A DNA stretch of 38,583 nucleotides from an uncultured Rhodobacterales bacterium (GCA_964521375.1 CAZFRK010000001.1:1-38583), one strand, 5' to 3'; positions 6,358 to 25,683 are shown, numbered from the stretch's first letter. The notes: a model not told the origin generated them from the sequence alone. Numbers and translations are program-made.

Positions 6358-6375
6358 GGCCCCCGACAGGGGGCC
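6358..6375 (+). terminator. GC-rich hairpin downstream of tRNA-Gln
   Basis: GGCCCCC-GACA-GGGGGCC, a 7-bp stem with no clear T-tract. It is preceded by the palindrome CAACGAT-C-ATCGTTG. Confidence 0.4.
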
Positions 6376-6381
6376 GCGCGC

Positions 6382-6386
6382 GTTCG
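6382..6386. repeat. Target-site duplication, left copy (GTTCG)
   Basis: GTTCG lies immediately before the terminal TGT at 6387. An identical pentamer follows the terminal ACA at 25678. Confidence 0.85.
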
Positions 6387-6481
6387 TGTCAGATTCAGTT
6401 ATAGATGGCCGCTACCAGTTCAAGTTGGCCAAAAACAAGCTTTAGATGGCCGGTCGAGAGGCTAAGGCGTTGAAAATGGCC
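6387..6481. repeat. Transposon end proximal to tRNA (R-like, compact): four putative TnsB-binding repeats
   Basis: The terminal site reads TGTCAGATT-CAGTT-ATAGA-TGGCC, the next CAGTT-CAAGT-TGGCC. Two degenerate sites follow: AAGCT-TTAGA-TGGCC and GCGTT-GAAAA-TGGCC. The TGGCC cores start at 6406, 6426, 6447 and 6477. Confidence 0.8.
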
Positions 6482-6544
6482 GGGAGTGGCGCGTGTCACT
6501 TTCCGGCCTTTTTATTTGACCTGGGATGCGGCAGGCACGCCCAA

Positions 6545-6560
6545 CAAGCCGCGCGGCTTG
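6545..6560 (-). terminator. Perfect 16-bp palindrome downstream of the TIR gene
   Basis: CAAGCCGCGCGGCTTG lies 68 nt after the TIR stop codon. There is no T-tract, so its function as a terminator is uncertain. Confidence 0.3.
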
Positions 6561-6627
6561 TGGGCTGTCCGGACGCCGACGGACCAGCCGCTTTGCGACG
6601 CGCGGTCGCCTCCCCCTAGAAGCAGAG

Positions 6628-7332
6628 CTAAGGAGCCACCAGCTCGGCGAGCTTGGCCGCAACCTCTTCCATCGGATTTTCTGTCGTATCCAAGCCGGTA
6701 CGCGAACCGAGCAGCGGACTGACGTCGCGGAGAGCTTCGTAGGTCGTCTCGTGCACAATGGGGACTAGCAGGTCACGCGCCAGCAGTGCCGATAGCTCTT
6801 TGTCGGCAATGCCTTCTCCTTGGAGCCGGCGCAGAAGCGCGGGGGTCACCAGCACGATGCCCACGCGAGACCTCGCCAATCCTCGGTCGATCTCGCGGAG
6901 CAACGGCGCGCCAAGGGCCACGTCCTTCTCGCTAAACCAGACCGAAACATTGAGCCACTCGAGTAGGTCGTGCAGTTCCTTGGCGACACCTTTTCGGTCG
7001 TCCCACGCATGGCAGAGAAATACGTCCCGACGGTCAGGCAGCGGCGCTCGCTTCTCGACGCTGTCTCGGACGGGCGTGAGCGCCCGGACCTCGGCTGGCG
7101 TGTATGCCACAGTTGAACCCGCAGGCGACCATCTCGGCCTTACGCTACCGCCGGACCCACCGACGCTGCTCCGACCACCCCCGCCGGTCCGCGGCAGCGA
7201 ATAGGACGGAGAGGAATAAGACCCGTAGCCGCCGTAACTGCGGTAGCCGCTATAGCCGCCTCCGCATGCGGGGCAGGCCGCGCGACCGCTCGCGGTGCGA
7301 TGGCCACGTCTTGGTGCTGTGCATCTTGCCAT
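6628..7332 (-). CDS. TIR-domain protein with Cys pair and Gly/Ser/Tyr-rich low-complexity N-terminus
   Basis: The C-terminal ~140 aa read DVFLCHAWDDRKGVAKELHDLLEWLNVSVWFSEKDVALGAPLLREIDRGLARSRVGIVLVTPALL. This follows the bacterial TIR layout: the DVF(L/I)SH-type first strand and a candidate catalytic Glu in WFSEKD. The N-terminus is MARCTAP...CPACGGGYSGYRSYGGYGSYSSPSYS...GGGGRSSVGGSGGS. Confidence 0.85.
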   Translation of the reverse strand: MARCTAPRRGHRTASGRAACPACGGGYSGYRSYGGYGSYSSPSYSLPRTGGGGRSSVGGSGGSVRPRWSPAGSTVAYTPAEVRALTPVRDSVEKRAPLPDRRDVFLCHAWDDRKGVAKELHDLLEWLNVSVWFSEKDVALGAPLLREIDRGLARSRVGIVLVTPALLRRLQGEGIADKELSALLARDLLVPIVHETTYEALRDVSPLLGSRTGLDTTENPMEEVAAKLAELVAP

Positions 7333-7550
7333 GAAACGGATGATACCGGGCGCTATTGGTCATCTCAAGTGGTAGCAGTAATTCTCCGCCCCGACCAACT
7401 GCTTCATGGGAACGGCAGCTGACTTGAGCAGGGGCGCGTGATGCTTCGGGACGGGTCGACGAGCTACGATGGATCGCCGTTGCTAACCCTGAACTGCAGA
7501 ATCTGGCCGCCGCTGAGCGTGCTGCACAGGCCGAGAGTCTACGCGGTGAC

Positions 7551-7823
7551 TTGATGGCGCTCTACCGGCAGCAGATAAAGATCGAAGCCGATTGCTCGAC
7601 TGCGGAGGAGCGTGCGAGACGGATTCGAGGGCAGGCGCGTACCGGACGACCCGCAGACATTGCTGCCGTCTGGGATGCCGAGGAGGAGATCTTGGCACTG
7701 CGGCGCCGACAGGCCGAACTGAACGAGCAAATCCGGGCAACGACGGCGGCCCTTAACTCTCTCGCGGAGGATGATGCCTTTCATGAAAGCAAAGTGGAGG
7801 CCGGCTGCGAAACGGCACCTTGA
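7551..7823 (+). CDS. Small coiled-coil protein (hypothetical)
   Basis: Heptad-like, charged sequence. The frame stays open upstream to 7428, so the start is uncertain (TTG 7551 / ATG 7554). Its TGA overlaps the TTG of the next ORF (TTGA), suggesting coupling. Confidence 0.4.
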   Translation: MMALYRQQIKIEADCSTAEERARRIRGQARTGRPADIAAVWDAEEEILALRRRQAELNEQIRATTAALNSLAEDDAFHESKVEAGCETAP

Positions 7824-8377
7824 TTGCGGAGAACACCGTGGAACCGGTTCTATTTCTTGATGTGGACGGTGTCCTCCTCCCGGGACGGGTTCATGATTCG
7901 CCATGGAATCGGGCAGCACGTGCGCTGGAGAAACCTGACGCCCCGTGGGTACGCTGGTTGACGCCGCGCGGGAGGTGCTGCGCGACGGAGCTTTGCCCAA
8001 CGGCTGTCGCCTCCTTGAATGAGGTTTTGGCGCAGACCGAGGCTCGCATGGTTCTGATCTCGACGTGGCGGGAGGAGTTCGGCGGATTAAAGACCCGCAA
8101 GATACTGACCGCCCAGGGCCTCTCTGAGCAATGGCATGCAGATTTCTGCGCACCATCGGTTGGCGCGAAAGGGGACGATATTCTGGCTTGGCTCACGACC
8201 CACTCGGAGGTGAACCGGTGGGCCGCAGTCGATGACGACCTCCTTTGGCCGCCATGGGGCGAACAACGAATAGGCCTCGCTCGAAACCACATAAGGCCAG
8301 AGTTCCACGATGGGATGTCTCCGGCCGACTGGCAGATGCTGAAAGATCGGCTGCTGACAGCCTCGGTACCGCTGTAG
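7820..8377 (+). CDS. HAD-superfamily-like small protein
   Basis: An N-terminal DxD nucleophile motif in VLFLDVDGVLLPG is followed by VLISTWR (motif II-like) and AAVDDD (motif IV-like). Start is TTG 7820 or GTG 7838. Confidence 0.6.
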   Translation: MIAENTVEPVLFLDVDGVLLPGRVHDSPWNRAARALEKPDAPWVRWLTPRGRCCATELCPTAVASLNEVLAQTEARMVLISTWREEFGGLKTRKILTAQGLSEQWHADFCAPSVGAKGDDILAWLTTHSEVNRWAAVDDDLLWPPWGEQRIGLARNHIRPEFHDGMSPADWQMLKDRLLTASVPL

Positions 8378-8394
8378 CCCAAAGCGAGGTTACG

Positions 8395-8741
8395 ATGAGC
8401 GAGTTGGAGCACAGGCTGAAGAACGACTGGCGGCGGTCCTGTCGATCAGCCTGAAGGCCAAGATTTATAGGCCGAAACCTGTTCCTGCGGAGGCCGAGGG
8501 CGCGGTCTCGGCGTGGCACTACACGATGACGGCCCCCGACTTCATCCTGACCGGCGCCTCGCTGGCCGAAAACATCGAGGGGAACGGCCGTAGGTTCTGC
8601 GGCGGGGACGGCTGGAAGATTTTGCGGAAGACCCTGGAGCCACACCGCATCGAATTCGCCTTCTCATACCACGGCGCCAGCGCCGAACGGGTCAGGAATG
8701 CCGCCGTGCGACAGGGCCTGCCGACAACGTCCCTGCAATAG
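8395..8741 (+). pseudogene. Possible frameshifted remnant of a HisKA_2/HWE-type histidine kinase
   Basis: MSELEHRLKND is followed, after restoring one missing nucleotide at ~8428, by LAAVLSISLKAK. Together these match the E-L-x-H-R-x-K-N-x-L-A-x-V-x-S H-box. The shifted frame runs straight into track ORF 8526..8741. The downstream sequence lacks clear ATPase boxes. Confidence 0.3.
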
Positions 8742-8995
8742 GTGTTAGACGCCGCTTTTGTCGATCAAGGGGGCCGCGACCTCCGCCAGCCTTGAAGCCC
8801 GGCTTGTCGTTGATCGGCCCGAGCATGACCATCTCATGAGCCTCAATGCGATGCGAGTGCCGCTCGCCGCTCATGAGCCGGTCCACGGCCCGGGGTCTCA
8901 TGGGCTCCTCAAGGCACCACCGGTTTATCCATCTGACGAGCCCCGGCAGCGATGGACCGAATTTCCATTGATCTCGGATAGACAGCCAGCTGTCT

Positions 8996-9027
8996 GGTTA
9001 TCATAACGCCGCAGATTTATGATAACC
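8996..9027. promoter_or_regulatory. Perfect 11-bp inverted repeat (operator-like) upstream of ORF 9117
   Basis: GGTTATCATAA-N10-TTATGATAACC. It is immediately preceded by the palindrome GACAGC-CA-GCTGTC (8981..8994). Confidence 0.4.
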
Positions 9028-9116
9028 GAGCACAGCCATACTGCCGAAGGTCATTGCCGCCGACGCTGGCGGCGAGATGTTACGGTAAGTACATGCATGT
9101 TCAGGGAGCCAGTGTC

Positions 9117-9437
9117 ATGAGCCGCACGGACAAGCTGGTCCTCGGGACGGTCAACGCCCCCTGGAAGCGCAGGATCGAGGCGCAAGACCTTGCAGAGGCC
9201 ATCGCCAACAAGGCAGTGCAGTCCAACCTGGTCCATGCGACCACTTTCTTCACCGAAGTGCAGCCGCATCTGATATTGGGCTTTGCTAAGGAACATGGCA
9301 TCGATGAGGAAGTTCTGAAGGACTCCTATCGTATGGTCGTGGCTCGCACCAACGAGCGAAATCCGGACCTTGAGAAGGCGCTTGAGTTTCACTCCGCTGA
9401 CGGGGAGGCCGCTGATGATCCGATGTGTAACCCCTGA
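9117..9437 (+). CDS. Hypothetical protein
   Basis: ATG 9117 with GGGAG 8 nt upstream (track ORF 9054..9437 trimmed). I recognise no motif. Confidence 0.4.
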   Translation: MSRTDKLVLGTVNAPWKRRIEAQDLAEAIANKAVQSNLVHATTFFTEVQPHLILGFAKEHGIDEEVLKDSYRMVVARTNERNPDLEKALEFHSADGEAADDPMCNP

Positions 9438-9657
9438 ACAGCAGATGGCCGCCGTTCGTGCGGTGTGCCGTCGTCGCGGCTTGGCGGGTGACGACCTCGA
9501 TACGCCGTCCAATGACGGGATGCGTCGGACGGTGAAGAAGCGCCTGCTTCTCCGGAAGCTTGAGGAGAGCCAGAGGGTTCAAGGACGCGCTCCCATTTTC
9601 CCGGCAAACTTCTGAACACCTCACCGCTTTTCACGCTTTCGTGCCGGCGGTGTCTTG

Positions 9658-10860
9658 CTACGCGCCCAAGTTGGCCGTCGGCAGATACGGCTCCGCGCCG
9701 AACGGCCGGTTGATCACAACCAGGGCTTCCGTGGCGACGAAGATGCGGTTCCGGGCATACCCCGTCCGCTCCGTCACGATCCCCGCCTCGGCCAACTGCT
9801 CCATGGCGCCGGCCGCCGACTTGAAGCTCACGTCAAGCGCCTCCGCCAGGCGGTTGACCGTCAGCACGGGGTAGTGGGGCAAAAGGCCCAGGGCGCGCAA
9901 AGAGGCGGACCCCTGCCGGAATGGCCGACGGGTCTGCCAGATCTGCGCCAGGTCGGCGAGCGCCGTGCGCGTCGCGAGAAGTTCTGCCACCGTTCCCACC
10001 ACCGCGTCGGCCATAAAGCCGACGATTGGATCCCACTCCAACCGCTGCTGGGCCGCCTTCAGGGCGTCGTGGTAGGCGCCCTTGTGGGCCTCGATGTAGG
10101 GCGAGAGGTAGAGCGGCACGGTGCCCTCCGCCGCCATCATAAGGGGCAGCAGAAGGCGGCCCACGCGGCCGTTGCCGTCGCGGAAGGGGTGGACCGCCTC
10201 GAACATCGCATGGGCCACCGCCATCCAGGTCAGAAGACCCTGGGTCATGACCTGCATCCCGTCGCACTGCATGTAGTCGATGACCTCGCCGAGGCACTTC
10301 GGCACCTGGGCGGGTGGCGGCGGATTGAAGGTGGAGTAGGCGATGCTCGCGCCGCCGCCAATCCAGACGACGCGGTCGCGGAGTCGCCCCGGAGTGTCCT
10401 TGTAGGCGTCGTCGTCCCGCATGACCTGCCGATGCAGGGCGGAGATGAGGTCCTGGGTAAAGACGGCATGCCCCCTGTCTTGGGCGACCGGGATCCACTG
10501 GTCCAACGCCAGGGCATAGTCCCGCACCTGACGCGCCGCCCCCGAGGCGCTGCCGTCCTGTGTCTCCTCGATAGTCAGGAGGTCCTCAAGATCGCATTCA
10601 ATGCCTTCGACCATGCACGATGCCGTCGCTTCCTGCCGGCGGAGGATGCCGTCAAGCGAGTGAGCGCCGGGGAAGTTTGCCTGCAAGGCCTCAGCTTTGC
10701 CGATTGCCCTGTCAGCCGCGCTGATCAAGGCGCTTTTGTCGCCCAGGGGAATGGCTTCTCTCGGCGGAGCCGGAAGCACAACGCCGTAGTGAGCGCCGTA
10801 GGGCGCCGGAAGGCGGCACAAATACCGCTGGACGGCAGCTGGTAACTCCTCGCGGCGCAT
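9658..10860 (-). CDS. Fic-family protein (class II, intramolecular inhibitory helix) with C-terminal winged-helix domain
   Basis: Fic active-site motif HPFRDGNGRVGR. An upstream SCMVEG matches the (S/T)xxxE(G/N) inhibitory motif. The C-terminal LTVNRLAEALDVSFKSAAGAMEQLAEAGIV is wHTH-like. Confidence 0.9.
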   Translation of the reverse strand: MRREELPAAVQRYLCRLPAPYGAHYGVVLPAPPREAIPLGDKSALISAADRAIGKAEALQANFPGAHSLDGILRRQEATASCMVEGIECDLEDLLTIEETQDGSASGAARQVRDYALALDQWIPVAQDRGHAVFTQDLISALHRQVMRDDDAYKDTPGRLRDRVVWIGGGASIAYSTFNPPPPAQVPKCLGEVIDYMQCDGMQVMTQGLLTWMAVAHAMFEAVHPFRDGNGRVGRLLLPLMMAAEGTVPLYLSPYIEAHKGAYHDALKAAQQRLEWDPIVGFMADAVVGTVAELLATRTALADLAQIWQTRRPFRQGSASLRALGLLPHYPVLTVNRLAEALDVSFKSAAGAMEQLAEAGIVTERTGYARNRIFVATEALVVINRPFGAEPYLPTANLGA

Positions 10861-11112
10861 TCAAAGGCTCCAACATGGGGCGTCTTTAGCATCCATATTC
10901 TCGGCTAATCGCACAACCTTAAACAGGATGCAGGTCGTGAAATCTTGGAAGGCTAACGCTTCTCTTGGAATATGTAAGAGCTCTACCGGACAGGCACCAT
11001 CTGGAGTCCCGAGCCGGGAACAGTAAATATCTGTACCCTCCGCGATCTCCTCTGTACCCGCCTTAGCGTCGTTTTTACTTGTTGATTCCCGAGTCCAGTC
11101 GAGGGAGAATCA

Positions 11113-12441
11113 TTGCCAAAACCCTCAGCGGACGCCGGTGAAATGCAGGCAAAGCCCCATCTTTGGCCGGGCCGCCCGAAGCTCCTTCCGGGAGAGAGTC
11201 TCTCTTCTTGGTTTGGGCGAGTGGCCGCCGCCAACGCCTTGACACCCGACGAGCTCTATCGGGTGGTGGTCCCGGGCGCGCACCTGCACAGTCGCGACCT
11301 CGACCGCGAGGCGTGCGAGAGCCTGATGGAAACCATGACATCCAACACCGGCCAGGAGCGGCGCGCGTTGGACGATGCGGTTCTGAGTCGGTGGCTTGGC
11401 ACCCTGTACGGGGAAGATGACGGCCGCTGTAGGCTTCCGTGGCTGCCGCCGATCGGCCGTCATAACCACGCTAAGTCGTTCGGGCAGCAGTACTGTCCGC
11501 AGTGCCTCGTGACCGAAAAGACCCCCTATTTCCGGCTCGAATGGCGGCTGTCCTTCATGACCGCCTGTCCGCGACACCTCACGCTGCTCATCGACCGCTG
11601 CCCGAAGTGCGCCGAGCCCGTCATCCCACTGCGGACACTACGTCACCAGGGCCGCCTCCTCTGCGGCAAATGCCATGGCGATCTCGCTGAGGCCGAGTCG
11701 GTCCCGGTACCCTGGAGCAGCCTGGCGCTGCAGACCCGCCTTCGCCAGGTCGCCGGCGAAGGCTGGGCGGAAGACGGCGATGGGCGCCCCGTGTTCGGCC
11801 TGGCCTATTTCGCATTAGCCCGGGCCATCTTCCGCCTCCTCTGTTCAAGCACAACGGCGCGTGCACTGCGGGCATGGGCGGCGGAGGAGGCCGACCTCGA
11901 CATTCGCGTGGAGCACATTCCCAGGGTGAAGGAGGTGGAGCGACTGACCACGTCCCGGCGCCACGACCTCCTTCAGCTGGCTTGGGTTTACCTTCGGGAC
12001 TGGCCCCATGCGCTCATCGAAGCCTGCCGTAAGAACCACATCCCGCAATGGCACTTGTCGCACCATCGCGAGGCACTTCCCTTCGCCTTTGCGGAAGCCG
12101 TCCTTCCGGCCTTGGCCGCTCCAGTTCGTCGCGTAGATGCTGCAGAACTGGAGGCGGCAAAGGAGTTCCTGGTCCGCCGGGGCTTTGTCCCGACCTACGA
12201 CGCGCTTCAGGGCCTCCTGGGCGTCAAGTTCGAGGCTAACCGGCACGTCGCCGAACCGGCCGACGAGCGAGCGTCCCACGGAACGGGGCGCTACTGGAAA
12301 CTGGATGGCGTCGATCCCGATGTTCGTCGCGCCGTACTGCACGAGGCCCACAAGAACGGAGAGAACGTTTCGGCGTGGGTTGAACGGACTCTTTGCCATG
12401 CCCTGAAAAAAACGAACGTCGTTTTCACGTCTGACGGGTAA
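11113..12441 (+). CDS. tniQ: TniQ/TnsD-family target-selection protein
   Basis: N-terminal TniQ signature WPGRPKLLPGESLSSWFGRVAAANAL. Zinc-ribbon Cys pairs CPQC...CPRH...CPKC...CGKC. TTG 11113 has GAGGGAGA upstream, and ATG 11143 is an alternative start. Confidence 0.85.
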   Translation: MPKPSADAGEMQAKPHLWPGRPKLLPGESLSSWFGRVAAANALTPDELYRVVVPGAHLHSRDLDREACESLMETMTSNTGQERRALDDAVLSRWLGTLYGEDDGRCRLPWLPPIGRHNHAKSFGQQYCPQCLVTEKTPYFRLEWRLSFMTACPRHLTLLIDRCPKCAEPVIPLRTLRHQGRLLCGKCHGDLAEAESVPVPWSSLALQTRLRQVAGEGWAEDGDGRPVFGLAYFALARAIFRLLCSSTTARALRAWAAEEADLDIRVEHIPRVKEVERLTTSRRHDLLQLAWVYLRDWPHALIEACRKNHIPQWHLSHHREALPFAFAEAVLPALAAPVRRVDAAELEAAKEFLVRRGFVPTYDALQGLLGVKFEANRHVAEPADERASHGTGRYWKLDGVDPDVRRAVLHEAHKNGENVSAWVERTLCHALKKTNVVFTSDG

Positions 12442-12477
12442 GACTCAAAGCAGAGCCAACACACGTGGGAGTCGGAC

Positions 12478-13113
12478 ATGCCAGTCCGCAAGGTCCCTCG
12501 CAACTACTGCAACGTCACCGGTCTGACCGCAATTCCCGGGCAGCGTTCCGTGCGGGTGGAATCGACTCTGGAGCGCGACTTCGTCTTGCGCACCATCTTC
12601 CACCCGAAGTTCCGCCACATCGAGGAACAGCCCCTGGTCATTCCGGTCCCGGAGACGGCCGGCAAGTACATCCCGGACTTCCTGGTGACGTGGGAGGGCC
12701 GGCGCGAGCTGATCGAGGTGAAGCCCGCAGCGAAGCTTGTCTCAGACAAGGCGCGCCTCAGGCCCCGCTTTGCCGCCGCGAGAGCCTACTGCCGATCAAG
12801 CGGCCTTTCTTTCCGCGTCGCGACGGAGGCGCACATCCGGGGGCCATACCTGGATAACGCTCGCTTCCTCATGCCCTACAGGCATCGCGAGGTCGATGAT
12901 GACCTGCGGAATCGCCTGCTGGGATCCCTGCAGGGCGGAGGGCCCTGCTCGTTGGAAGAGCTCCTTCAGCGGGCCACCGGGAGCGACCGCCTCGCTGCTC
13001 TGCCTGTCCTATGGCACCTACTCGCCAACTTCCGCGTCCGCGTCGACCTGAACGCCCCCATCGACATGAACAGCATCGCCAAGCCGGCCAGGGGGAAGCC
13101 ATGGGCCGCTTGA
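12478..13113 (+). CDS. tnsA: TnsA-like endonuclease
   Basis: Restriction-endonuclease-like E...D...K arrangement: ESTLERDF, YIPDFLV, LIEVKP. 211 aa, sits directly upstream of tnsB and overlaps it by 13 nt. Confidence 0.8.
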   Translation: MPVRKVPRNYCNVTGLTAIPGQRSVRVESTLERDFVLRTIFHPKFRHIEEQPLVIPVPETAGKYIPDFLVTWEGRRELIEVKPAAKLVSDKARLRPRFAAARAYCRSSGLSFRVATEAHIRGPYLDNARFLMPYRHREVDDDLRNRLLGSLQGGGPCSLEELLQRATGSDRLAALPVLWHLLANFRVRVDLNAPIDMNSIAKPARGKPWAA

Positions 13114-15874: not shown

Positions 15875-15911
15875 GAGTGGAATCCAATTCTCTGCTGATC
15901 GCACACGCGCA

Positions 15912-16262: not shown

Positions 16263-16297
16263 GCAAATTAGCATGCATAGTGACGAGCAAATTTGCA
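16262..16297. promoter_or_regulatory. Operator-like inverted repeats in the XRE/NADAR divergent region
   Basis: TGCAAAT (16262..16268) and ATTTGCA (16291..16297) are inverted. The perfect palindrome GCAAATTTGC (16287..16296) abuts the NADAR Shine-Dalgarno AAGGAGG. Confidence 0.45.
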
Positions 16298-16308
16298 AGG
16301 AGGCTTTG

Positions 16309-16791: not shown

Positions 16792-17723
16792 CGCTCGCCG
16801 CCTTCCGACAGGAGGCTACGGACGTACTCGGCATCCCGGTGCCGGAATAATCCCCTTGCACCAGCGAACGCGCAGTTCTCTGCCGCCAGCCGTTGCCCTG
16901 CGGTCACCCCCCTTAGCAGACGTGCCGCCTTAAGCGCATGCGAGCTCAGATGGTTGGTCAGCAGCCAGTCTATGACTCCCACGCTGACCATGTCTCCCGA
17001 GCCGCACGTGTCTACGACGGCGGGCGCGCTGAACGATGGACACCAAAACACGTCCGTTGCGTCGCGCAGCTCAAGACCTGCGGCCCCATAGGTGACGATC
17101 CGCACACAATCCGTGACCTCATCGGCTAGGCGCTCGCCCAGCCGGTCGTCGGAATACTTAAGGATCGAGCATAACGAAATCGCTTCTTCGAAAAGATGAT
17201 CGTCCTCAATTTTGGACGGCTCAAAGAAGACAACAGCGCCAGAGGCGCGAGCAATCTTTAAAGCCTCCAATATCCCGTGGGAGAGACGGTCAACATAGAA
17301 GACGCTACAGTTGGTGAGGACGGGCAAGGCCTGAGCTAGCTCCAGCTCACCGATGGGATGATATCGAGGAAAATCCTCGTTTGTCTCCGGACAGACGAAG
17401 CTGAAGCTGTGCAAACCGAGACTTGGGTTGAGGGTCTGCGCGAGCACCGGAGATCGAAGACCCGGCCGACGGTAGATGTACTCCACGACCGCGCCCGCCT
17501 GGATAAACTCGTTGATGAGCCTTTCACCCTCACCGTCGTCACCCAGAGCAAGCACAGGCGCCACGTTTCGGTGCAACATCGCCAACGAGAGCAGCACATT
17601 TCCACACGAGCCGCCAAGGGCTTCGCCAGCCAGTCCGCCATCTGTGTACAAGCGGTCCAGAACCGTAAATCCTGTTCCGGAGACATCGGCCCGCCAGTTG
17701 CGAACGCATTTTGAAATGGACAT
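16773..17723 (-). CDS. PfkB/ribokinase-family sugar or nucleoside kinase
   Basis: N-terminal GG motif LGGSCGNVLLSLAML and C-terminal anion-hole/catalytic motif VVDTCGSGDMVSVG. The 3' end overlaps the convergent NADAR gene by 19 nt. Confidence 0.88.
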   Translation of the reverse strand: MSISKCVRNWRADVSGTGFTVLDRLYTDGGLAGEALGGSCGNVLLSLAMLHRNVAPVLALGDDGEGERLINEFIQAGAVVEYIYRRPGLRSPVLAQTLNPSLGLHSFSFVCPETNEDFPRYHPIGELELAQALPVLTNCSVFYVDRLSHGILEALKIARASGAVVFFEPSKIEDDHLFEEAISLCSILKYSDDRLGERLADEVTDCVRIVTYGAAGLELRDATDVFWCPSFSAPAVVDTCGSGDMVSVGVIDWLLTNHLSSHALKAARLLRGVTAGQRLAAENCAFAGARGLFRHRDAEYVRSLLSEGGERYSAAM

Positions 17724-17744
17724 ATGAGCCGGAAGATCAGTTTG

Positions 17745-19682
17745 TCAGTGGCTGTCAAGCGCCAGCAGTTCACTGTCTATGCAAACGCGCCCTTCTGGTG
17801 AGTGTACCAGAGAACGCAGCACTCTGAGAAGGGCCTCCGGGCCGGTGGGCCTGTCTCCGAAAAGCGACCAGCATCCGTCCGGCGCATCACAAACATCACC
17901 GACACTGATACCGAATGCGTGAGAGAGGAAAGCGTGATCGTTGCCGCTCCGGGAGCCGCTATCACCGAAGCAGAGGATCTCGCTTCCGGGCTTCGCAGCA
18001 ACCCGCAGCGCCTCTACAACCTTAAGCTTGCTAGACGCAGCGGGTACGACGTCATAACTGTGGCCCGAGCTCGTGATGCGAAGATCTCCGGAGGCCAAAA
18101 CAGGGCACTCCGAAAAGTCTCCGACGAACCTGTCGGGGTGCTTCAGGGCATCCATCCCAATCGTGATCTGGAGAGCTCGAACCTTGAAGTCGTGCGCCTC
18201 AAAGAGATCACGTCGAGTCCACAGCCAAGCAGCCGCGCCCTCTATTGCTGGATGTCGCTCAATGAGCTCGTGCTCAATATCCACGTCAGCTGTCCGCAGT
18301 AGGCCGCCGTTGTAGTAGCCGACCACCACGGATCCAACCATCTCCGGCGGAAGGAGACTCCGCAGTTCCTCTCCAACGGAACCACCGCGCCCTGTCGCTA
18401 TGCCGATTTCGACGCCCGCATGGTGGAGCCGAACTATCTGCTCGATGATTCGGGGCTCTGGAGGTCCGAAGCGGCAGTCCGTAGCGACGAGAGTACCGTC
18501 GTAGTCGAAGACTGCGCCGCCAATTTCAGCCTTTAAAAGCGCCTCTACGCGCTCCTGGTTGGTTGAAGAAAGAGTCTCGCAATCGGCCTCCTGACCCCCT
18601 GTGCGCGCCATTGCGGAACGCTTATGGCGTACGCTCGTGGTCAGTCGGCTGGCCACTTGGGCCAAAGATCCGGCCTCATATATTGATCGACCGAAGTCGC
18701 CAACACCAGGCTTCCCCGGATCGATTTCCAGTATAACGCCGAGCCCCTCAATGATGCCGAAGCCATCAATCAAAGCCGACGCGTTATCCAAGCGACTGCA
18801 AGAACCATGGTCCAAGGCTGCACGGCGAATCGAAGAAGGCAGAACGGCATCAATTGCTCGCCACGAAGACCGAGAATCCACCCCAGTGAGCCCCAATACG
18901 AAAGTCTCTTCGGCCCGATGGTGCAGCCAAGTGTGGCGGCCGTGCGCTAGGTTGCGGATATCTGTCGTCTGAATGGGGCACAGTGCGGCTTCCCATAGTG
19001 ACGTATCCAGCAACACAGCCAGCGGACGCAGAAGCGGATCTGCTGCTAAGATGAGCGTGTCGGTCCTTCGAATGCCGTCAAATAGCTCCCTCACTTCTTC
19101 TCGAGAAATTGGTTCTAGACACCGGGCGAGCCGCTCGGCCAATAACGACAAGAGAGCGTCCCGGCCGAGTGGTTCTCGCGAAGCCAGATCGCTCCCTAAA
19201 AGCAAGGCGGTGACTGAGGCCATCAATGAATGCGTGGCGAGATAACCGTCCTTCGCATCGGCCACGGGTACGAGATGAACCGTGCCATTTCCACGCCTGG
19301 CAATCTCTGCGGCTGCGCCTTTCTCGTTCCTGGTAACGAGGTGGAGTCGTCTGCAACCTCGGTCGAGGGCAGCCTGGGCAGCGGCTGAAATATCGGCGTT
19401 GTCTCCGCCGGCACTGAACAGCCACACCTCGCTTTCCGCAAGGCCCTGCAACTCGAGGACAGCTTGCATTGGAGTCTGGACGGATGTCGGGCCAAGGCTA
19501 AGCGTATCGCGGCAGCGCGCAAAGTACTCCGCAGCAACTAATGATCCGCCGGACCCGACCGCCAGCGCGTGCCGGCCGCCCCCCTGCCTCAGCGCCGTCG
19601 CCAAACAAGACGGGTCAAATGTCTCAAACAGGTTTAGCGTACTGGGAAGTGCGTCCAGTTTTTGGTTGAATACATTCAGCAT
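17745..19682 (-). CDS. Fusion protein: N-terminal (tandem) SIS phosphosugar-binding domains + C-terminal HAD-IIB phosphatase
   Basis: SIS-like HALAVGSGGSLVAAEYFA and VWLFSAGGDNADISAAAQAALDRGCRRLHLVT. HAD motif I GAVFDYDGTLV, motif II GIATGR and motif IV CFGDSGSRSGNDHAF (the GDxxxxxND of Cof/OtsB-type IIB). Confidence 0.8.
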   Translation of the reverse strand: MLNVFNQKLDALPSTLNLFETFDPSCLATALRQGGGRHALAVGSGGSLVAAEYFARCRDTLSLGPTSVQTPMQAVLELQGLAESEVWLFSAGGDNADISAAAQAALDRGCRRLHLVTRNEKGAAAEIARRGNGTVHLVPVADAKDGYLATHSLMASVTALLLGSDLASREPLGRDALLSLLAERLARCLEPISREEVRELFDGIRRTDTLILAADPLLRPLAVLLDTSLWEAALCPIQTTDIRNLAHGRHTWLHHRAEETFVLGLTGVDSRSSWRAIDAVLPSSIRRAALDHGSCSRLDNASALIDGFGIIEGLGVILEIDPGKPGVGDFGRSIYEAGSLAQVASRLTTSVRHKRSAMARTGGQEADCETLSSTNQERVEALLKAEIGGAVFDYDGTLVATDCRFGPPEPRIIEQIVRLHHAGVEIGIATGRGGSVGEELRSLLPPEMVGSVVVGYYNGGLLRTADVDIEHELIERHPAIEGAAAWLWTRRDLFEAHDFKVRALQITIGMDALKHPDRFVGDFSECPVLASGDLRITSSGHSYDVVPAASSKLKVVEALRVAAKPGSEILCFGDSGSRSGNDHAFLSHAFGISVGDVCDAPDGCWSLFGDRPTGPEALLRVLRSLVHSPEGRVCIDSELLALDSH

Positions 19683-20833
19683 GTACGGCCCGCCTCACTA
19701 TAGCTTTCGTACATCGGCCCCGACAAAATCAGGTGGACCATCATGTCTGGCCTATCTGGCGAGGGCGCGGGGACACCCTCAATGGCATAGCTCTCCATTT
19801 CCAGATATTGGACAGCCATACCATGCTCTATAGCTGCCATGAGCGCGCCAGCCGCCAGAACCTTGCTACCGATTGGGGAGAGCACCATGCGCGGCTCAAA
19901 GGTGCCTTCCATTGTCCGATCAAATCGGACCTTCAGGGTCGATAGCGTGCGGTAGCAGTCTAGAGGGTTCTTCTCGGACGCATATACTACGTCTCTAGGA
20001 TCAACCAGCCACTCATTGACCAGGGCAATCTCGTATTCGGATAGAAGGTCGTCAGCACGCCGAGGATTCCGCGAGGGAAACGGAAGGAGCGGGCAGATCT
20101 TGTAGCATCTGCCAATCGCGATCCCGATCTGGGCCAACGCTGACGCCCTCCCCCGCGCTAGCTGGGGGATCCAGATCTGCGCCAGGTCTTGCTCTCCATC
20201 CGCTTCGGCAGGCAGCGCAAAACCTTTCACGGCACTGGGGCGGCTCCACGGCGTCCCCACAATCCTGTCGTCCATCTCCGGGTTGGAGACAATCATGAGA
20301 TGGAAGCTTCTGTTGGCTGCGGACTCGCAGTCCTCTAACAGCATCCTTGCTGCGGGAAAACCCACGCCGATGGAAAGAGCGCTCAGGTCAAGAATAACAT
20401 CGGTGACTTCATCCGGAACCTGATATTCCGTCAAGAGCTTAACTATACGAGCCCCTCCGACCGGCGCACTGTCATCAGCAAAAATGTCTACCCGAAGGAC
20501 GGAACAATCGGGAACAATTCTCCTCAACGTCTCCTCATTTTCATCCGCCAGCGCCAGAAGATCGTCCGACGGCGCAGGTCGTTCTTCACGAATGAAAATG
20601 GCACATAGTCGGGACCCCATCACATCAGCCAGCATTTGTGCAATCCGCCTGGATCTGGGATCGAAACCGGCAGCAGCAACAAGGAGAACACGTCTTGCGG
20701 GATTTCTGAAATAGTCTCTCGCGAAATCTTCAACGTCTTCGTCAAAGTTCGTTATACAGTTCTCCCAATGACTACGCATCTTCAAGTCCCGCAACATCTC
20801 GAAGGTAGCTGACTTTTTTTGGTATGAACCCAC
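19676..20833 (-). CDS. Uncharacterised 370-385-aa protein (two Rossmann-like halves; no family recognised)
   Basis: Long ORF embedded in the operon. The stop overlaps the SIS-HAD ATG (ATGCTGA). Candidate starts are 20833, 20797 or 20779; the last gives an 8-nt overlap with the NTPase stop. Confidence 0.7.
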   Translation of the reverse strand: MGSYQKKSATFEMLRDLKMRSHWENCITNFDEDVEDFARDYFRNPARRVLLVAAAGFDPRSRRIAQMLADVMGSRLCAIFIREERPAPSDDLLALADENEETLRRIVPDCSVLRVDIFADDSAPVGGARIVKLLTEYQVPDEVTDVILDLSALSIGVGFPAARMLLEDCESAANRSFHLMIVSNPEMDDRIVGTPWSRPSAVKGFALPAEADGEQDLAQIWIPQLARGRASALAQIGIAIGRCYKICPLLPFPSRNPRRADDLLSEYEIALVNEWLVDPRDVVYASEKNPLDCYRTLSTLKVRFDRTMEGTFEPRMVLSPIGSKVLAAGALMAAIEHGMAVQYLEMESYAIEGVPAPSPDRPDMMVHLILSGPMYESYSEAGRTC

Positions 20834-22679
20834 CTCGATGGAAGGTGAGCCCGTGAACCAAGCATACCGTCCCAGTCAGCTCTACCAGAGCCCAAAGCTT
20901 TCCCCCTTGTCCGTAGTTCCGCTCAATCGTAATTGCGCCGTTCGCGATGGCATGCTTAAGAATGATCGCAAGATCGTCATCGGCCGGAAGCGAGTCCATC
21001 TCTTCCTCAAGGATGCCGATCGCATTTGCGCCATAGCCGAGAGGAGCATTCGGAAGAGTGGATTCGGCCATGCATTCTCTACCTATCGCGTCAACCATCT
21101 CTCTTACGCGCTGCGCGTAGGCGAACGGCCAGTCGTCCATTATCTCCTTTGCCTTCCTCACAAGAACGGATTGTTGCTCCCGGGCAGAGAGAGCTAGCGG
21201 TCTGTTTCGAATCGCGCGAGTTTCGATACTTGCAACCAGAGCCCCTGTAAAACGAAGGAATCGTTCTGCGTTTCCGTCGCTGGCATCGCAAATTCTGTCA
21301 ACGCCATAATGTAAAGGCCGCCCATATTCATGATAGAGATGGAGCCGCGCCCCATTTGCGACGTAAGAATCCGCCTTTAAGGGCATTGCGATATCTGCGT
21401 CCAACTCTTCGAATAGGGAGGGCGTGGAGCGGGCGACCCTGATCGCATAGCGATGGAGTAGAATGCGCGTCATCGCAAGGTGGATGTCTTTTCCCTTGTC
21501 ATAAGACTTGGACCGCCCTAAGTACTCGGCAACTATATTTTCAATCTCTCGCCGCCGCGACTTTGTAACGCCGAGACTTTCCTGCTCCTTAGAAACCTTT
21601 TCTTCGAGCTGCCTAAACTGGCTGTCTGTTAGTGACGGAGGCTTGCTCGGAAGCAAACGATCAATGTCGGTAACGTTGCCAATTACCTCCACCCGAGGAA
21701 GGTATCGCCCTGCCATATCACGCGCCACCGCTCGAAACTGCCGACGAACCGAATCCGATTTTTCGTGGTCCTGCATGCGAATGTCGATGAAGTCGCGACC
21801 AATAGAACGATTATGCGTCGGCTGACTGCCAGAGGAACGCAAAACGGCACCAGGGCTCAGCGCGTCCAACCGCATCATCAACCAGCGTCCGAACTTCATC
21901 TCTCGATGAGATAGCATTCCGAACATGGCTTCGAGTTGATCGTGGTGCAGCGCATGAATATCGTCCAGCATGACCAGAGGAACCAATTCTATCGCCTCGC
22001 CCTTCCACTCTATGCGAATCCTGCTAATGGCATCGAAAGGAGCGTAGGGCGCCGTTGCGTCTTTCGGCAAATCTTCAAGTTTCGGTGGACGGAGTCCCGC
22101 ACCCACGGAGTAGATGGCGCGCTGTACCGCGAGAGCCCTATCTCGGATACCGGCGGTCGAGAGACCGCCAATCTGCTCTAGATGAGCCTCGTAATTGGCA
22201 CGCGGAACGAACTCGATTTCCTGGATGCTGCGGGTGTTGTTAACTGTCAGGTTCCTGATCAGCCCAAGCACAGCGCGGGCCTGCACCAACCAGAACGCAA
22301 GCTTTGCTTTTACCGCCGGCTCGTACGGCAATTCCCAGAACTCGCGATACTCCGACTCCATCGGCACCCTCACGGCCGCTACATGAGGTCTGCCATCCCG
22401 AAGAAAACCCGCCCTCGCCAAATCGGCGGCCAGTGACCTATTGGTGAGATTGGTCTCGTCCCTCAAGATGATTTCCACCATCTTGAATTCGGCCAACCTG
22501 GCCAGCGTGGTCTTACCGCTGCCGGGTGAGCCAATTATGCGCACCGGCAAATCGAACACTTCGTCTTTATGTTTGCTCGTCGCGAGGAATGTCGTCAGCG
22601 GCTTGGGACTGACGATCGACAGAAAAGCCTCATCATCGCGAACATACTCAGTTGCTCGCCGAAGGAATGGATTCGCCAT
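20772..22679 (-). CDS. Large P-loop NTPase (AAA+/STAND-like) with ~400-aa uncharacterised C-terminal region
   Basis: Walker A in VRIIGSPGSGKTTLARL and Walker B in LVPLVMLDDIHAL. The ATG lies 6 nt after the upstream PRTase-like stop. Confidence 0.85.
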   Translation of the reverse strand: MANPFLRRATEYVRDDEAFLSIVSPKPLTTFLATSKHKDEVFDLPVRIIGSPGSGKTTLARLAEFKMVEIILRDETNLTNRSLAADLARAGFLRDGRPHVAAVRVPMESEYREFWELPYEPAVKAKLAFWLVQARAVLGLIRNLTVNNTRSIQEIEFVPRANYEAHLEQIGGLSTAGIRDRALAVQRAIYSVGAGLRPPKLEDLPKDATAPYAPFDAISRIRIEWKGEAIELVPLVMLDDIHALHHDQLEAMFGMLSHREMKFGRWLMMRLDALSPGAVLRSSGSQPTHNRSIGRDFIDIRMQDHEKSDSVRRQFRAVARDMAGRYLPRVEVIGNVTDIDRLLPSKPPSLTDSQFRQLEEKVSKEQESLGVTKSRRREIENIVAEYLGRSKSYDKGKDIHLAMTRILLHRYAIRVARSTPSLFEELDADIAMPLKADSYVANGARLHLYHEYGRPLHYGVDRICDASDGNAERFLRFTGALVASIETRAIRNRPLALSAREQQSVLVRKAKEIMDDWPFAYAQRVREMVDAIGRECMAESTLPNAPLGYGANAIGILEEEMDSLPADDDLAIILKHAIANGAITIERNYGQGGKLWALVELTGTVCLVHGLTFHRGGFIPKKVSYLRDVAGLEDA

Positions 22680-22685
22680 GACGTG

Positions 22686-23876
22686 TCAGCCGTGTCTATC
22701 GCGACGGAAGAACAATGAAACCATCTTTCTACCCTGATGACCACCAGTCTCCGCCCAAAGGAGCGGGATGGAATTATTAGGAGTGTTATGCTCGAGGACT
22801 ACTGGGAGAGCACAATTAGCATATCCGAACCGCATGTCGGCCTGGCCGGCCTCCCGGCAGTGCTTCTCAAGGCGTATAAATAGATCGTGATCATAATATT
22901 TCTGCGCCAGTGAAACAATGGCATCATCTTCACTGTTCGTTGGGGCTGTGGAGGTGGGTTCATCTCCAACATGTGCGACCTTTATATCATTTAGCAACAG
23001 AAGACCTTCCGTGATAATGGCGCTCCGGTAGCTCTTATCGCGCATTACCTTGTCGGCTTCCTCCACACGTTCGAGCAGCGCTTCTCGTGCTTGAGCCGTC
23101 GAAATATAATGATGTATGTGTAGATTGTAATTTTCCGACAGAGGAAACTTGTCCCCTAAAGAACGTTTAGCCTCCGCCACAATGGCTTCGAACTTCGCAA
23201 GCTTTCCTTTGGGCCTTCCCTCCGGAAATCGGATAAAAGTAGTGCCTGAAGCGGTGAAATCATCTATTAAGTATACGTCATCAAACTTAGCCCCTATTCC
23301 AAGGTCGCCCTGAATATCATCTGCCAAGCTTCTCCATTTATCATGATCAATGTTCATCATGGGAACCACCTGCTCCTGAGACAGGCGGCCTGCGTTTGCC
23401 CGGCGAAGAGCATCAATCCGGCTGCCATCGCTAAGACCAACAAAGAGGCAGCGGCGCAACCTTTTTGCGAATGCGTGAGCAACCTGAGGGGACTTCCAAA
23501 CCTCGTATGGCCTCACATCAAATTCTTCGGCGACAGATCGACGCAGATAAGGAATTACAACCTCTGGCACAAACGTCTCTATGAGCCGCTGCATCTCCAG
23601 AGCCGATACGTAAACTAGGCGAGTTTTGATGAATTCATAAGCGTGAGACCTGTCCTCTTCATCGAAGTGACGCAGCCAAGATACCAAGGTCTCTAGGAAG
23701 CGCACGCCAGCGCGAAAATCGGAATATCCGTCATATTTCATAGACGACATGAGAGTCAGCCATGAGTACTCCTTTGTGGCCTTCTCGTTGTCCCACCTCA
23801 TCACGCTGGCAATGAGGTTAAGAGCGAGGATATTTATCATGATCGACTCTTGCCCGTACGTCTTATCCCGCTGCAT
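22686..23876 (-). CDS. Phosphoribosyltransferase-like protein with long helical N-terminal domain
   Basis: PRPP-binding loop DDVYLIDDFTASGTTF. The track ORF extends to TTG 23972, but that codon is preceded by TCTCCTCCT with no SD. ATG 23876 or 23840 is the more plausible start. Confidence 0.8.
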   Translation of the reverse strand: MQRDKTYGQESIMINILALNLIASVMRWDNEKATKEYSWLTLMSSMKYDGYSDFRAGVRFLETLVSWLRHFDEEDRSHAYEFIKTRLVYVSALEMQRLIETFVPEVVIPYLRRSVAEEFDVRPYEVWKSPQVAHAFAKRLRRCLFVGLSDGSRIDALRRANAGRLSQEQVVPMMNIDHDKWRSLADDIQGDLGIGAKFDDVYLIDDFTASGTTFIRFPEGRPKGKLAKFEAIVAEAKRSLGDKFPLSENYNLHIHHYISTAQAREALLERVEEADKVMRDKSYRSAIITEGLLLLNDIKVAHVGDEPTSTAPTNSEDDAIVSLAQKYYDHDLFIRLEKHCREAGQADMRFGYANCALPVVLEHNTPNNSIPLLWAETGGHQGRKMVSLFFRRDRHG

Positions 23877-24333
23877 CTCAAAATGAGCGGCAGCGCCAAG
23901 CACAATCCTGGCACGATCGCAGGCGTTTTCAAACCTTGTAGATTGGGGCGAGTATCGGAGACGCTTCGACAAGGAGGAGAAGACGCCGCGCGGCCTGCCA
24001 ATGGGGACATGAAACTTGATATTCGCCTGGGTACGGTCGGGTTAATGGTGACAGTGGCAGCTATGCCCTCCGTCTGCGGACGGGTTCCCCGCTCCGGGGC
24101 AGTTCAGCCTCCCTGAACTCGCGATCCCAGCAACCCGCTTTAGGGGGCGCTGAGGAGGGCGACCGGAGGAATGTTCCGATGAGACGGAAGAATGCCCCCC
24201 CCTCGGCCGCTTATTTTTCGCCCTGAGCTAGCGCGTTATCATAACGATCGAAAATTTTACATAGGAAGTTTGACTACGCTAATTCGGCGCAATGCGTTTG
24301 GTCTGAAAGATTTATTTGTAAACCAGTTGGCAT

Positions 24334-24343
24334 CTGACGTCAG
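24334..24343. promoter_or_regulatory. Perfect palindrome CTGACGTCAG in the AT-rich region upstream of the cargo operon
   Basis: Read directly. It lies ~360-460 nt upstream of the candidate PRTase-like starts. Confidence 0.3.
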
Positions 24344-24488
24344 CCTTGATGAAATCATAAATGAACTGAGCAGACATAACCGTAGGAAGCGGTAGCGTCC
24401 CAGTCTTTGCCTGACGAGCAGGCGCGGCCGGAGGATGAGGACTGCGCCTGTTCCCATCAGGCGCTGCTGAATGCTGGTAGGCCATCAG

Positions 24489-25307
24489 CTAACGCGTCGG
24501 CCCAGGCGGCTCCACGAGCGGATGGCGAAGGATCTCCATCGTCTCCTTCGCCTGTGCGAGCCAGCGGCGGCATTCGCGATTATCGGCGAAGGAAACGCCA
24601 ATCACCTCTTCCTGATTGACGTCGTAGAGGGCATAGCGCGGTTTGCCATGCGAAACGCTGATGCGGAAGAGGAGCGCCGGATGGCGCGTCTCGAACCGCA
24701 CCGCCCGCGTTTCCGGCGACACCACAGGCAGATTGTCCTTGAACAGCGAGCGGAACTCGTCGTCGATCTCGCCATGAAGCGCCAGGCGCTCCGCATGGTC
24801 GTCCGGCCTTAGACCATGGAACGAGTCCAGGACGTTGGCCAGCGCCACTTCCCTGGCCATCGGGAGAAGCTCATATGCGGGAGGCGTCAGCTGCTCGGCG
24901 CCGGCATCGCCGTCCACCACGTGGTGCCTATCCGGCATCAGGATCAGGATCTTGCGGAACAACCCGGTGAGCCCGGCCAGGACCTCGCTCTCGGAGATTG
25001 GCTCCACCATCGCATAGGTGTTGGCGCGGCACGTCTGGTTCCACCGATGTCCAGCAACAGCGCGTAGCGCATCGACGCGCTCCCGGTGCCACGCGGCCCA
25101 GACGTAGGCCTTCCAGCTACCGTCCTTTTCGGGACGAAGGCGGGCTAATCCGAGCCCGTCGGCTGGGACATCCAGGTGCCGTCCCAGCTCGGAGAGGAGC
25201 TTTCGATGCTCGCCGGCCATCTGTGGCAGCGGGAGGCCCCGGCAGTAGTCTATGATTTCCTCGAATGTCTTCCTCGCCAACGGGTCCTCACTACGCCGGT
25301 GCGCCAT
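24489..25307 (-). CDS. Hypothetical protein (272 aa) next to the distal transposon end
   Basis: ATG 25307 is preceded by AGAGGGGGA. I recognise no motifs. A hairpin CAGGCGC-N18-GCGCCTG lies just downstream (24419..24450). Confidence 0.6.
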   Translation of the reverse strand: MAHRRSEDPLARKTFEEIIDYCRGLPLPQMAGEHRKLLSELGRHLDVPADGLGLARLRPEKDGSWKAYVWAAWHRERVDALRAVAGHRWNQTCRANTYAMVEPISESEVLAGLTGLFRKILILMPDRHHVVDGDAGAEQLTPPAYELLPMAREVALANVLDSFHGLRPDDHAERLALHGEIDDEFRSLFKDNLPVVSPETRAVRFETRHPALLFRISVSHGKPRYALYDVNQEEVIGVSFADNRECRRWLAQAKETMEILRHPLVEPPGPTR

Positions 25308-25555
25308 CACGTCCCCCTCTTCTGCTAACCGGTGTCCAGGTTGGAGAAGACGCTCTCGCGACGCAAGCCGCCAAACGGCACTGGCCGGTTGAGCTCCGTT
25401 CGGCTAGTTCGGATGCGGGGAGACGTTTTCTGCTCGCACTGGAATCCCGCAAGACTTCTGCAGGGGCGCATTGAGTTCCATTTACGCGAGACGGCTGCAT
25501 CGCCTGCTGGTCGATACCTACAGCCTTAAAATCCCACAGTACGTCCGCAATCTTC

Positions 25556-25678
25556 GGCCATTTTCAACTGGTGTTTTACAGGTTCCGGCCACGCTTAACT
25601 GGTGGCTTTGGCCATGACGAACTGGTGCATCAACGGCCCTGACTCCGGCTCACCGGCCATCTACATCTGAATCTGACA
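25556..25678. repeat. Transposon end distal to tRNA (L-like, more dispersed): four putative TnsB-binding repeats
   Basis: Read on the reverse strand. The terminal site is TGTCAGATT-CAGAT-GTAGA-TGGCC. The other three are CAGTT-CGTCA-TGGCC, CAGTT-AAGCG-TGGCC and CAGTT-GAAAA-TGGCC. The GGCCA cores start at 25556, 25587, 25610 and 25655. Confidence 0.8.
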
Positions 25679-25683
25679 GTTCG
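25679..25683. repeat. Target-site duplication, right copy (GTTCG)
   Basis: GTTCG lies immediately after the terminal ACA (25676..25678). Confidence 0.85.

Follow-up and report, generated by a model that had tools for sequence, protein, structure and literature searches.

A Tn7-like transposon of 19,292 bp occupies positions 6387 to 25678 of the 38,583-bp stretch of DNA analysed here, which comes from an uncultured Rhodobacterales bacterium (GCA_964521375.1, CAZFRK010000001.1:1-38583; "the window" below always means this whole stretch). It is very probably a complete element, likely still mobile, that is directed to tRNA genes by its TniQ protein. A preliminary description of the window had called it a complete 19.3-kb transposon of this type, and the parts are indeed all present: genes for TniQ, TnsA, TnsB and a TniB-type TnsC, TGT/ACA ends, repeats inside both ends, and a 5-bp target-site duplication. 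The element lies downstream of an intact tRNA-Gln gene, and the same association with tRNA genes recurs at many related loci.

Boundaries and ends of the element

The element begins at 6387 with TGTCAGATTCAG and finishes at 25678 with CTGAATCTGACA, its termini being TGT and ACA. The two ends are inverted copies of one another, as had been claimed: a repeat finder returns a 25-nt terminal inverted repeat of 92% identity (6387-6411 and 25654-25678). The left junction (6382-6410) reads ...GCGCGC GTTCG / TGTCAGATTCAGTTATAGATGGCC... and the right junction (25655-25689) reads ...GGCCATCTACATCTGAATCTGACA / GTTCG CGCGCC..., where the slash marks the edge of the element. The 5-bp duplication GTTCG is identical on the two sides (left copy 6382-6386, right copy 25679-25683), as in other Tn7-like elements and as previously reported for this one. 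The GC content is 0.51-0.65 inside the element versus about 0.70 in its flanks.

Multiple, asymmetrically spaced repeats lie inside the TGT/ACA termini, another feature of Tn7-like ends. There are five exact copies of the motif CAGTT-N5-TGGCC in the 38.6-kb window where 0.10 would be expected, a count that none of 100 shuffles attained, and all five copies face inward and lie at most 125 bp from a terminus, so the proposed enrichment of this repeat at the ends relative to the rest of the window holds. The count of four repeats per end holds when degenerate copies are included; only two copies at the left end and three at the right are exact, and allowing one or two mismatches adds the other three. 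In the tRNA-proximal end (6387-6481, + strand), which has the TGT terminus, is the equivalent of the Tn7 right end and is shared with loci L059 and L061 described below, motif scans place the repeats at 6396-6410, 6416-6430, 6437-6451 and 6467-6481 (offsets 10, 30, 51 and 81 from the terminus, a span of 95 bp). In the tRNA-distal end (25556-25678, - strand), with the ACA terminus and equivalent to the Tn7 left end, they lie at 25655-25669, 25610-25624, 25587-25601 and 25556-25570; read inward they start at 25669, 25624, 25601 and 25570 (offsets 10, 55, 78 and 109, a span of 123 bp). The tRNA-facing end is thus the more compact one and the tns operon reads away from the tRNA, both as first described; that description needs correction in one respect, namely that the operon begins 4.7 kb inside the end, with tniQ as its first gene and three cargo genes in between. 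Directly inside the fourth repeat of the tRNA-proximal end is a terminator-like hairpin with a T-run (6482-6513, + strand), conserved in L059, which may insulate the element from tRNA read-through.

Transposition genes

Four full-length core open reading frames (ORFs), with their catalytic or Walker motifs intact, lie on the + strand in the order tniQ-tnsA-tnsB-tnsC. The sole target selector gene, tniQ (11143-12441), encodes 432 amino acids (AAs) and is identified by Pfam (TniQ, 8e-24), by matches to TniQ proteins in the PDB, and by an AlphaFold2 (AF2) model searched with Foldseek. The 211-AA endonuclease gene tnsA (12478-13113) matches Pfam Tn7_TnsA-like_N (3e-15) and TnsA_C (1.5e-9) and NCBIfam TnsA_like (9e-21); its translation contains the predicted catalytic E, D and K residues in an E...D...EVK motif (ESTLE, PDF, EVK), and a sequence search of the PDB with TnsA alone gives no relative. 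The tnsB gene for the DDE transposase (13101-14990; the ORF opens at 13011 and the likely start is the ATG at 13101) is separate from and not fused to tnsA. Its product has Pfam rve and Mu-transpos_C domains and is related to the TnsB proteins of PseCAST (7e-35), Tn6677 (7e-32) and Tn7 (5e-11) in the PDB, with the DHT, DN..EF and IER motifs aligned. The tnsC gene (14987-15874) encodes a short, 295-AA AAA+ regulator of the TniB type (Pfam TniB 1e-56), whose nearest solved structure is VchTnsC (1e-9) and whose Walker A (GKTT) and Walker B (IIDE) motifs are visible in that alignment.

The claim that the element has a single TniQ, no TnsE and no CRISPR module is borne out by domain scans of the ORFs and by repeat and Rfam searches. 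Among the scanned sizeable ORFs of the window there is no second TniQ, TnsE, Cas protein, resolvase or integrase; the window contains no CRISPR-like or tandem repeats, and Rfam yields the tRNA only. Nor is there a second copy in the window of the 23 nucleotides at the 3' end of the tRNA, with up to three mismatches allowed. Two other assignments were considered and rejected on these data: an integrase-type, tRNA-linked island, given that no tyrosine or serine integrase domain is found and the tRNA 3' end is not repeated at the far border, and a CRISPR-associated transposon (CAST), given that there are no Cas domains, no array or guide-type repeats and no Rfam match besides the tRNA.

Two copies of TCTGTACCC, 21 bp apart, lie at 11030-11059, about 85-115 bp upstream of the tniQ start. 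They could be an operator or promoter element; the signal is weak, and two copies also occurred in three of 100 shuffles.

Repeated insertion beside tRNA genes

The tRNA-Gln(CTG) gene next to the element (6251-6324, + strand; ARAGORN, and Rfam RF00005 with 69.5 bits) is intact, has an encoded CCA, and is the presumed determinant of the attachment site. From its CCA (6324) to the start of the element are exactly 62 nt with the left copy of the duplication included, in agreement with the spacing first given. Ends of the same element type are found in two other hosts, again beside a tRNA-Gln(CTG). In L059-L061 the chromosomal flanks are 83-86% identical to those of the window and the shared cargo is 95-97% identical, and in L059 and L061 the tRNA-Gln(CTG) of that host is followed, after 65 bp, by a near-identical element end; the intervening spacer is unrelated to that of the window. 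The surrounding chromosome has therefore diverged more than the element has, which points to a recent transfer and to an insertion separate from that in the window. In L062, the only yield of a single metagenome scan, all that is left of the element is a 25-nt relic (456-480) identical to the window terminus, 69 bp past a tRNA-Gln(CTG), and a tRNA-Met lies 140 bp beyond the relic. The only sequence that the window, L059-L061 and L062 sites have in common is the tRNA gene, and this is the strongest evidence for tRNA-directed targeting.

These sites also bear on whether the element is now a fixed, immobile relic, whose ends and duplication record an old event and whose tns genes are decaying. 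Some of its relatives have decayed (L051 and L041 are truncated, and L062 is the 25-nt scar just mentioned). In L059 the expected place of tniQ, about 150 bp past the end of the sequence held in common with the window, has an insertion sequence, and the 4.7 kb of cargo that separates the tns operon from the end is unlike the arrangement in most relatives. Against this stand the four full-length core ORFs with their motifs, the perfect duplication and the 92% identical terminal repeats, and a near-identical element in a host whose chromosome is only about 84% identical argues for recent movement. We therefore regard an immobile relic as unlikely, and the element is presumably still active.

More distant relatives were collected by a profile scan with TniQ, using one genome per species. 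A word-indexed protein collection contains 23 TniQ homologues besides the window copy, all with 48% identity or less, and the profile scan yielded 57 related loci, mostly in Rhodospirillales (for example in Azospirillum, Ferrovibrio, Magnetospirillum, Phaeospirillum and Rhodocista). A tblastn comparison with the four window proteins finds the order tniQ-tnsA-tnsB-tnsC, which is unusual for Tn7-like elements, in nearly all of them. At 35 of the 57 loci ARAGORN places a tRNA gene on the same strand shortly upstream of tniQ: tRNA-Gln in 21 cases, Ser in seven, Phe in three, Met in two, and Thr and Val in one each. Downstream of the CCA in 33 of these 35 is a TGTC(A/G)... terminus followed by about three repeats with 20-22-bp spacing; the terminus lies 27-36 bp after the CCA at 26 loci, 38-45 bp after it at four and 64-67 bp after it at three. 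Typically tniQ comes first among the genes of a member and lies about 400 bp from the tRNA. Perfect 5-bp duplications delimit two further complete members, L003 (16,095 bp, CCCGT) and L051 (6,871 bp, GGGCT). As with other Tn7-like elements, insertion is orientation-specific and beside a conserved gene, with an offset that is not strictly fixed. The element had been proposed to recognize the tRNA-Gln region; these loci, together with the near-identical end at L059, strongly support tRNA targeting but not exclusive use of tRNA-Gln. The family is apparently undescribed and mostly alphaproteobacterial.

Several loci show other arrangements. In L025 (9502-9600) a 32-nt end relic, TGTAGGAAACGGCACTGTTTTTTAAAAACGGG, which resembles the ends of L032 and L035, starts 32 nt after a tRNA-Gln, and the end of a second element lies at +64, which suggests that one element landed inside a resident one or displaced it. 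In L002 (13800-14013) and L029 (16153-16227) a tRNA-Gln follows the tns operon and is encoded on the other strand; 32 nt past this tRNA L002 has a family-type end, so the operon points toward the tRNA and a different internal orientation is implied. The nearest TniQ homologue (P0002, 48% identity; L071, 2879-6928) is followed by a converging Tn5053-like tniQ-tniB-tniA set and not by tnsA-tnsB-tnsC, which may be one transposon inserted into another; there is no tRNA gene on this contig. The end pattern has no match in viral contigs.

The insertion point

Removal of the element and one copy of GTTCG gives a predicted empty site, ...GGCCGCGCGC-GTTCG-CGCGCCGGC..., with a single GTTCG. The restored sequence GCGCGC-GTTC-GCGCGC is a palindrome that puts the duplication in a would-be loop, and the preliminary description accordingly had the element inserted in the loop of a GC hairpin. 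Another hairpin, GGCCCCC-GACA-GGGGGCC, lies in the tRNA trailer (6358-6375, + strand) with no T-run behind it, and no other stem survives here in the centroid fold. Such features might mean that the insertion point is set by local DNA structure (the GC palindrome, the hairpin loop or a terminator in the trailer) and not by reading of the tRNA gene, and a hairpin does lie between the tRNA and the insertion at all five sites with long offsets (the window, L059, L062, L013 and L042). The palindrome around the insertion point was indeed found as described, but it does not serve as a general target. Folding of the restored site does not produce its 6-bp GCGCGC stem, either at minimum energy or in the centroid, and there is no palindrome around the insertion points of L059 and L062 or around the duplications of L003 and L051; targeting of a hairpin loop was rejected for these reasons. 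The distance from the trailer hairpin to the element, counted by hand, is 11, 23 and 17 nt in the window, L059 and L062, respectively, which is proportionally more variable than the distance from the tRNA, and most members of the family are inserted 27-36 bp after the CCA with no intervening hairpin. Control of the insertion point by DNA structure is thus quite unlikely. Because this genome is 70% GC we regard the palindrome as incidental, and its position at the insertion point is probably a coincidence.

TniQ and target recognition

The element is proposed to move as follows. TnsB would bind the CAGTT-N5-TGGCC repeats of the two ends, excision at the TGT/ACA termini would be the joint work of TnsA and TnsB, and TnsB would join the element to the target with a 5-bp stagger, giving rise to the GTTCG duplication. 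The single TniQ would recognize the tRNA gene and recruit the short TniB-type TnsC, which in turn would license insertion downstream of the tRNA in a single orientation, such that the tniQ-proximal end faces the tRNA and the tRNA gene is kept intact. That TniQ itself reads the tRNA gene is our inference, and its C-terminal tail would be the part that binds DNA.

The TniQ protein consists of an N-terminal TniQ/zinc-ribbon region, a helical middle, and a tail at residues ~383-425. Its AF2 model has a mean predicted local distance difference test score (pLDDT) of 81 and its Foldseek matches are TniQ and TnsD structures; by sequence, the PDB search relates it to PseCAST TniQ.1 (1.5e-9). A scan of 1.84 billion representative proteins separates two tiers, about 30 clusters that match the full TniQ profile and 1,277 clusters (E ≤ 1e-30) that match only profile positions ~5-365, so the last ~60 residues are specific to the subfamily. 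This C-terminal part is the best conserved portion of TniQ across all intact members: the segment is GRYWKLDGVSPEVRxAAKxAAHRxGENVGxWV, and the conserved module reads GRYWKLDGVSPEVR...GENVGxWV. The sequence pattern of the tail suggests a strand and two helices, of which only the helices are confidently modelled (in neither model of the tail does DSSP report a strand as long as three residues). When the tail is modelled in isolation (pLDDT 67) its top Foldseek match is Arc (probability 0.84, 1.1 Å over 35 residues), and CopG, TacA, AtaR, MatP, AmrZ and VapB follow, almost all of them ribbon-helix-helix proteins. The tails of four members also give weak Pfam matches to ribbon-helix-helix antitoxins, and a profile of the C-terminal region has no sequence match in the PDB. 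The predicted structure makes it probable that the tail is a ribbon-helix-helix module, and with moderate confidence we take it to be an added DNA-binding module. A modular picture of target selectors, into which such an addition fits, has been drawn before (PMC10293859); ribbon-helix-helix modules are not mentioned there.

Several observations weigh against the reading of the region as a complete, probably mobile element whose TniQ directs it to tRNA genes. The ribbon-helix-helix scores are weak (Foldseek E ~1, Pfam E 0.004 or weaker, and pLDDT 67 for the domain model). This element type is found 62, 65 or 69 bp from the tRNA, a wider spread than the ±1 bp reported for TnsD, and these distances are ~30 bp longer than the usual 27-36 bp of the family. 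TniQ proteins that are 82% identical are found beside different tRNAs, tRNA-Ser(GGA) in L005 and tRNA-Gln(CTG) in L007 (similarly in L009 and L012); the Ser-associated proteins as a group are separated from the Gln-associated ones by only six scattered and mostly conservative positions, and no cluster of specificity-determining residues was found between them. Finally, there is no empty site among the nearest relatives of the flanking genes, which are too distant to provide one. Exact-sequence look-ups of three flank proteins of the window gave no match. The host of the element is a Novispirillum-like alphaproteobacterium, as its Ppx protein, encoded in the flank, shares up to 84% identity with the Novispirillum sp. 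DQ9 protein, and in the nearest Ppx relatives (77-84% identical) the tRNA-Gln is followed by formate-dehydrogenase genes (L058), a LysR gene (L064) or tRNA-Met (L062), while L063 ends before the tRNA; the nearest relatives of the kinase on the other side (59-64% identical) keep the regulator/kinase/EAL cluster and have other genes upstream. The perfect duplication and canonical ends remain the evidence for what appears to be a simple insertion.

The target tRNAs of the family share little except the T-arm GGTTCGAATCC and the CCA, and the end of L056, beside tRNA-Met, is ~82% identical to that of L024, beside tRNA-Gln. It is conceivable, if doubtful, that TniQ consists of a Tn5053-like core and a ribbon-helix-helix module that reads a feature common to tRNAs, for example the T-arm with its palindromic TTCGAA, and that two classes of offset, ~30 and ~64 bp, are set by the TniQ-TnsC assembly. 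If so, generic reading of tRNA genes would explain the presence of 82% identical TniQs at Ser and Gln tRNAs and of similar ends at Met and Gln tRNAs, and with two offset classes a newly arriving element could come to lie inside one already present, as at L025.

Relationship to other transposons

The element resembles Tn7 (TnsABC+D, inserting at attTn7 after glmS) in its separate TnsA and TnsB, its TnsC regulator and its TniQ-domain selector, in its TGT/ACA ends with several transposase-binding repeats that are packed more tightly at the target-facing end, in the 5-bp duplication, and in that it inserts with a single orientation downstream of a conserved gene, which is left intact. It differs from Tn7 in that it targets a tRNA gene and not glmS, lacks TnsE, and has a short TnsC of the TniB type (295 AAs), a TnsB that is distant from that of Tn7 (E 5e-11), a tniQ gene that precedes tnsA and does not follow tnsC, and a TniQ of 432 AAs that lacks TnsD's C-terminal part.

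Among experimentally studied systems, the TnsD proteins of PmcCAST, McCAST and CyCAST place the element 29-33 bp past a tRNA-Val or tRNA-Leu gene (PMC9881144, PMC10293859), with measured offsets of 29±1 and 30-33 bp (PMC9881144, PMC10293859). The window element shares with these cyanobacterial type I-B2 and I-D CASTs a protein-guided, CRISPR-independent type of insertion some tens of bp after a tRNA gene, and the most frequent offset in its family is 27-36 bp. On the other hand TnsA and TnsB are fused in those CASTs, a large TnsD is accompanied by a small second TniQ, and Cas genes are present, whereas in the window element TnsA and TnsB are separate, there is one TniQ and no Cas gene, the offset is 62 bp, and the target is a tRNA-Gln rather than a Leu or Val tRNA. 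Membership in the cyanobacterial TnsAB-fusion clade was rejected because tnsA and tnsB are separate ORFs and only one TniQ-domain ORF (432 AAs) is present. The type I-F3 CASTs (Tn6677 type) are nearest among solved structures for both TnsB and TnsC; the window element differs from them in having no Cascade or CRISPR array, another gene order and another TniQ C-terminus.

The N-terminal ~295 AAs of TniQ are ~30% identical (E 1e-27) to TniQ proteins annotated on enterobacterial plasmids, which we take to belong to Tn5053/Tn402-type elements (the records show only the gene names TniQ and TniB). This N-terminus and the TniB-type TnsC are points of likeness to the Tn5053/Tn402 group. However, Tn5053 has no TnsA, uses a resolvase and targets plasmid res sites, and the window element has TnsA, no resolvase, and a chromosomal location beside a tRNA gene; assignment to the Tn5053/Tn402 family was rejected because TnsA is present and no resolvase domain was found.

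Cargo genes

Cargo flanks the tns operon on both sides, with ~4.7 kb between the tRNA-proximal end and tniQ and ~9.8 kb past tnsC. Between the tRNA-proximal end and tniQ are a full-length ThsB-like TIR protein gene (6628-7332, - strand; Pfam TIR_2 1e-13, PADLOC ThsB1 3e-120), for which no ThsA partner is recognizable among the neighbouring ORFs, a gene for a HAD_SAK_2 domain protein (7820-8377, + strand; Pfam 3e-20), and a Fic/SoFic-like gene (9658-10860, - strand; Pfam Fic 1e-15, PADLOC SoFic 7.5e-68). This region is mosaic when window positions 7215-10932 are compared with L059 1317-3558: about 1.5 kb of the window (8359-9834) is missing from L059, which has DUF6933 and DUF3800 genes instead, and because of this mosaicism the C-terminus of the Fic protein differs between the two. 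The mosaic structure, and the 4.7 kb between end and tniQ where most relatives have tniQ ~400 bp from the tRNA, might be taken to mean that the island is a composite in which a smaller core transposon is flanked by separately acquired islands and the outer ends are foreign to the tns genes. A pair of inner ends around the tns operon was looked for and rejected, as neither TGT ends nor clustered repeats occur around 10.9-11.1 kb and 15.9-16.3 kb. Furthermore, L003, L006, L013, L021 and L026 also have kilobases of DNA between the tRNA-proximal end and tniQ, and the outer ends fit the end architecture of the family. A composite origin is thus highly improbable, and the whole of 6387-25678 is best read as one transposon.

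Beyond tnsC lie an HTH (helix-turn-helix) regulator gene (15912-16298, - strand; Pfam), a gene for a NADAR protein (16246-16791, + strand; Pfam), and an operon of five cargo genes on the - strand (16773-23972; Pfam, PADLOC and NCBIfam). The operon encodes a PfkB kinase (16773-17723; Pfam), a 645-AA HAD-IIB fusion protein (17745-19682; NCBIfam HAD-IIB), a CARF6-like protein (19676-20833; PADLOC CARF6 1e-106), an ORC/CDC6-like ATPase (20772-22679; Pfam) and a PRTase-CE protein (22686-23972; Pfam, and PADLOC PRTase_III-A 1e-13). Together with the NADAR and HTH genes this operon looks like a nucleotide-signalling defence system, which PADLOC matches in parts only. A last ORF of 273 AAs (24489-25310, - strand) has no family match in Pfam, PADLOC or NCBIfam and is doubtful as a gene.

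Conclusions

According to a review, different tRNA genes have become attachment sites on repeated occasions by way of TnsD and TniQ proteins (PMC11406308), and defence-rich cargo is typical of Tn7-like elements (PMC8649781). Protein-guided homing to tRNA genes and cargo of this kind are thus already established, and the general picture of Tn7 biology is unchanged by the element described here. Nothing that links Tn7 or TniQ to tRNA-Gln was found in the literature searched. What is distinctive about it is local: tniQ as the first gene of the operon, the probable ribbon-helix-helix tail of TniQ, an offset of ~62-69 bp, and cargo on both sides of the tns operon. The analysis gives exact boundaries to a 19-kb island of defence genes and shows it to belong to a coherent family that numbers at least 57 loci. 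Judged from its genes, the element is a candidate for a compact system of four proteins that would home to tRNA genes without CRISPR, and its small, modular TniQ could show how target selectors gain DNA-binding modules and switch attachment sites.

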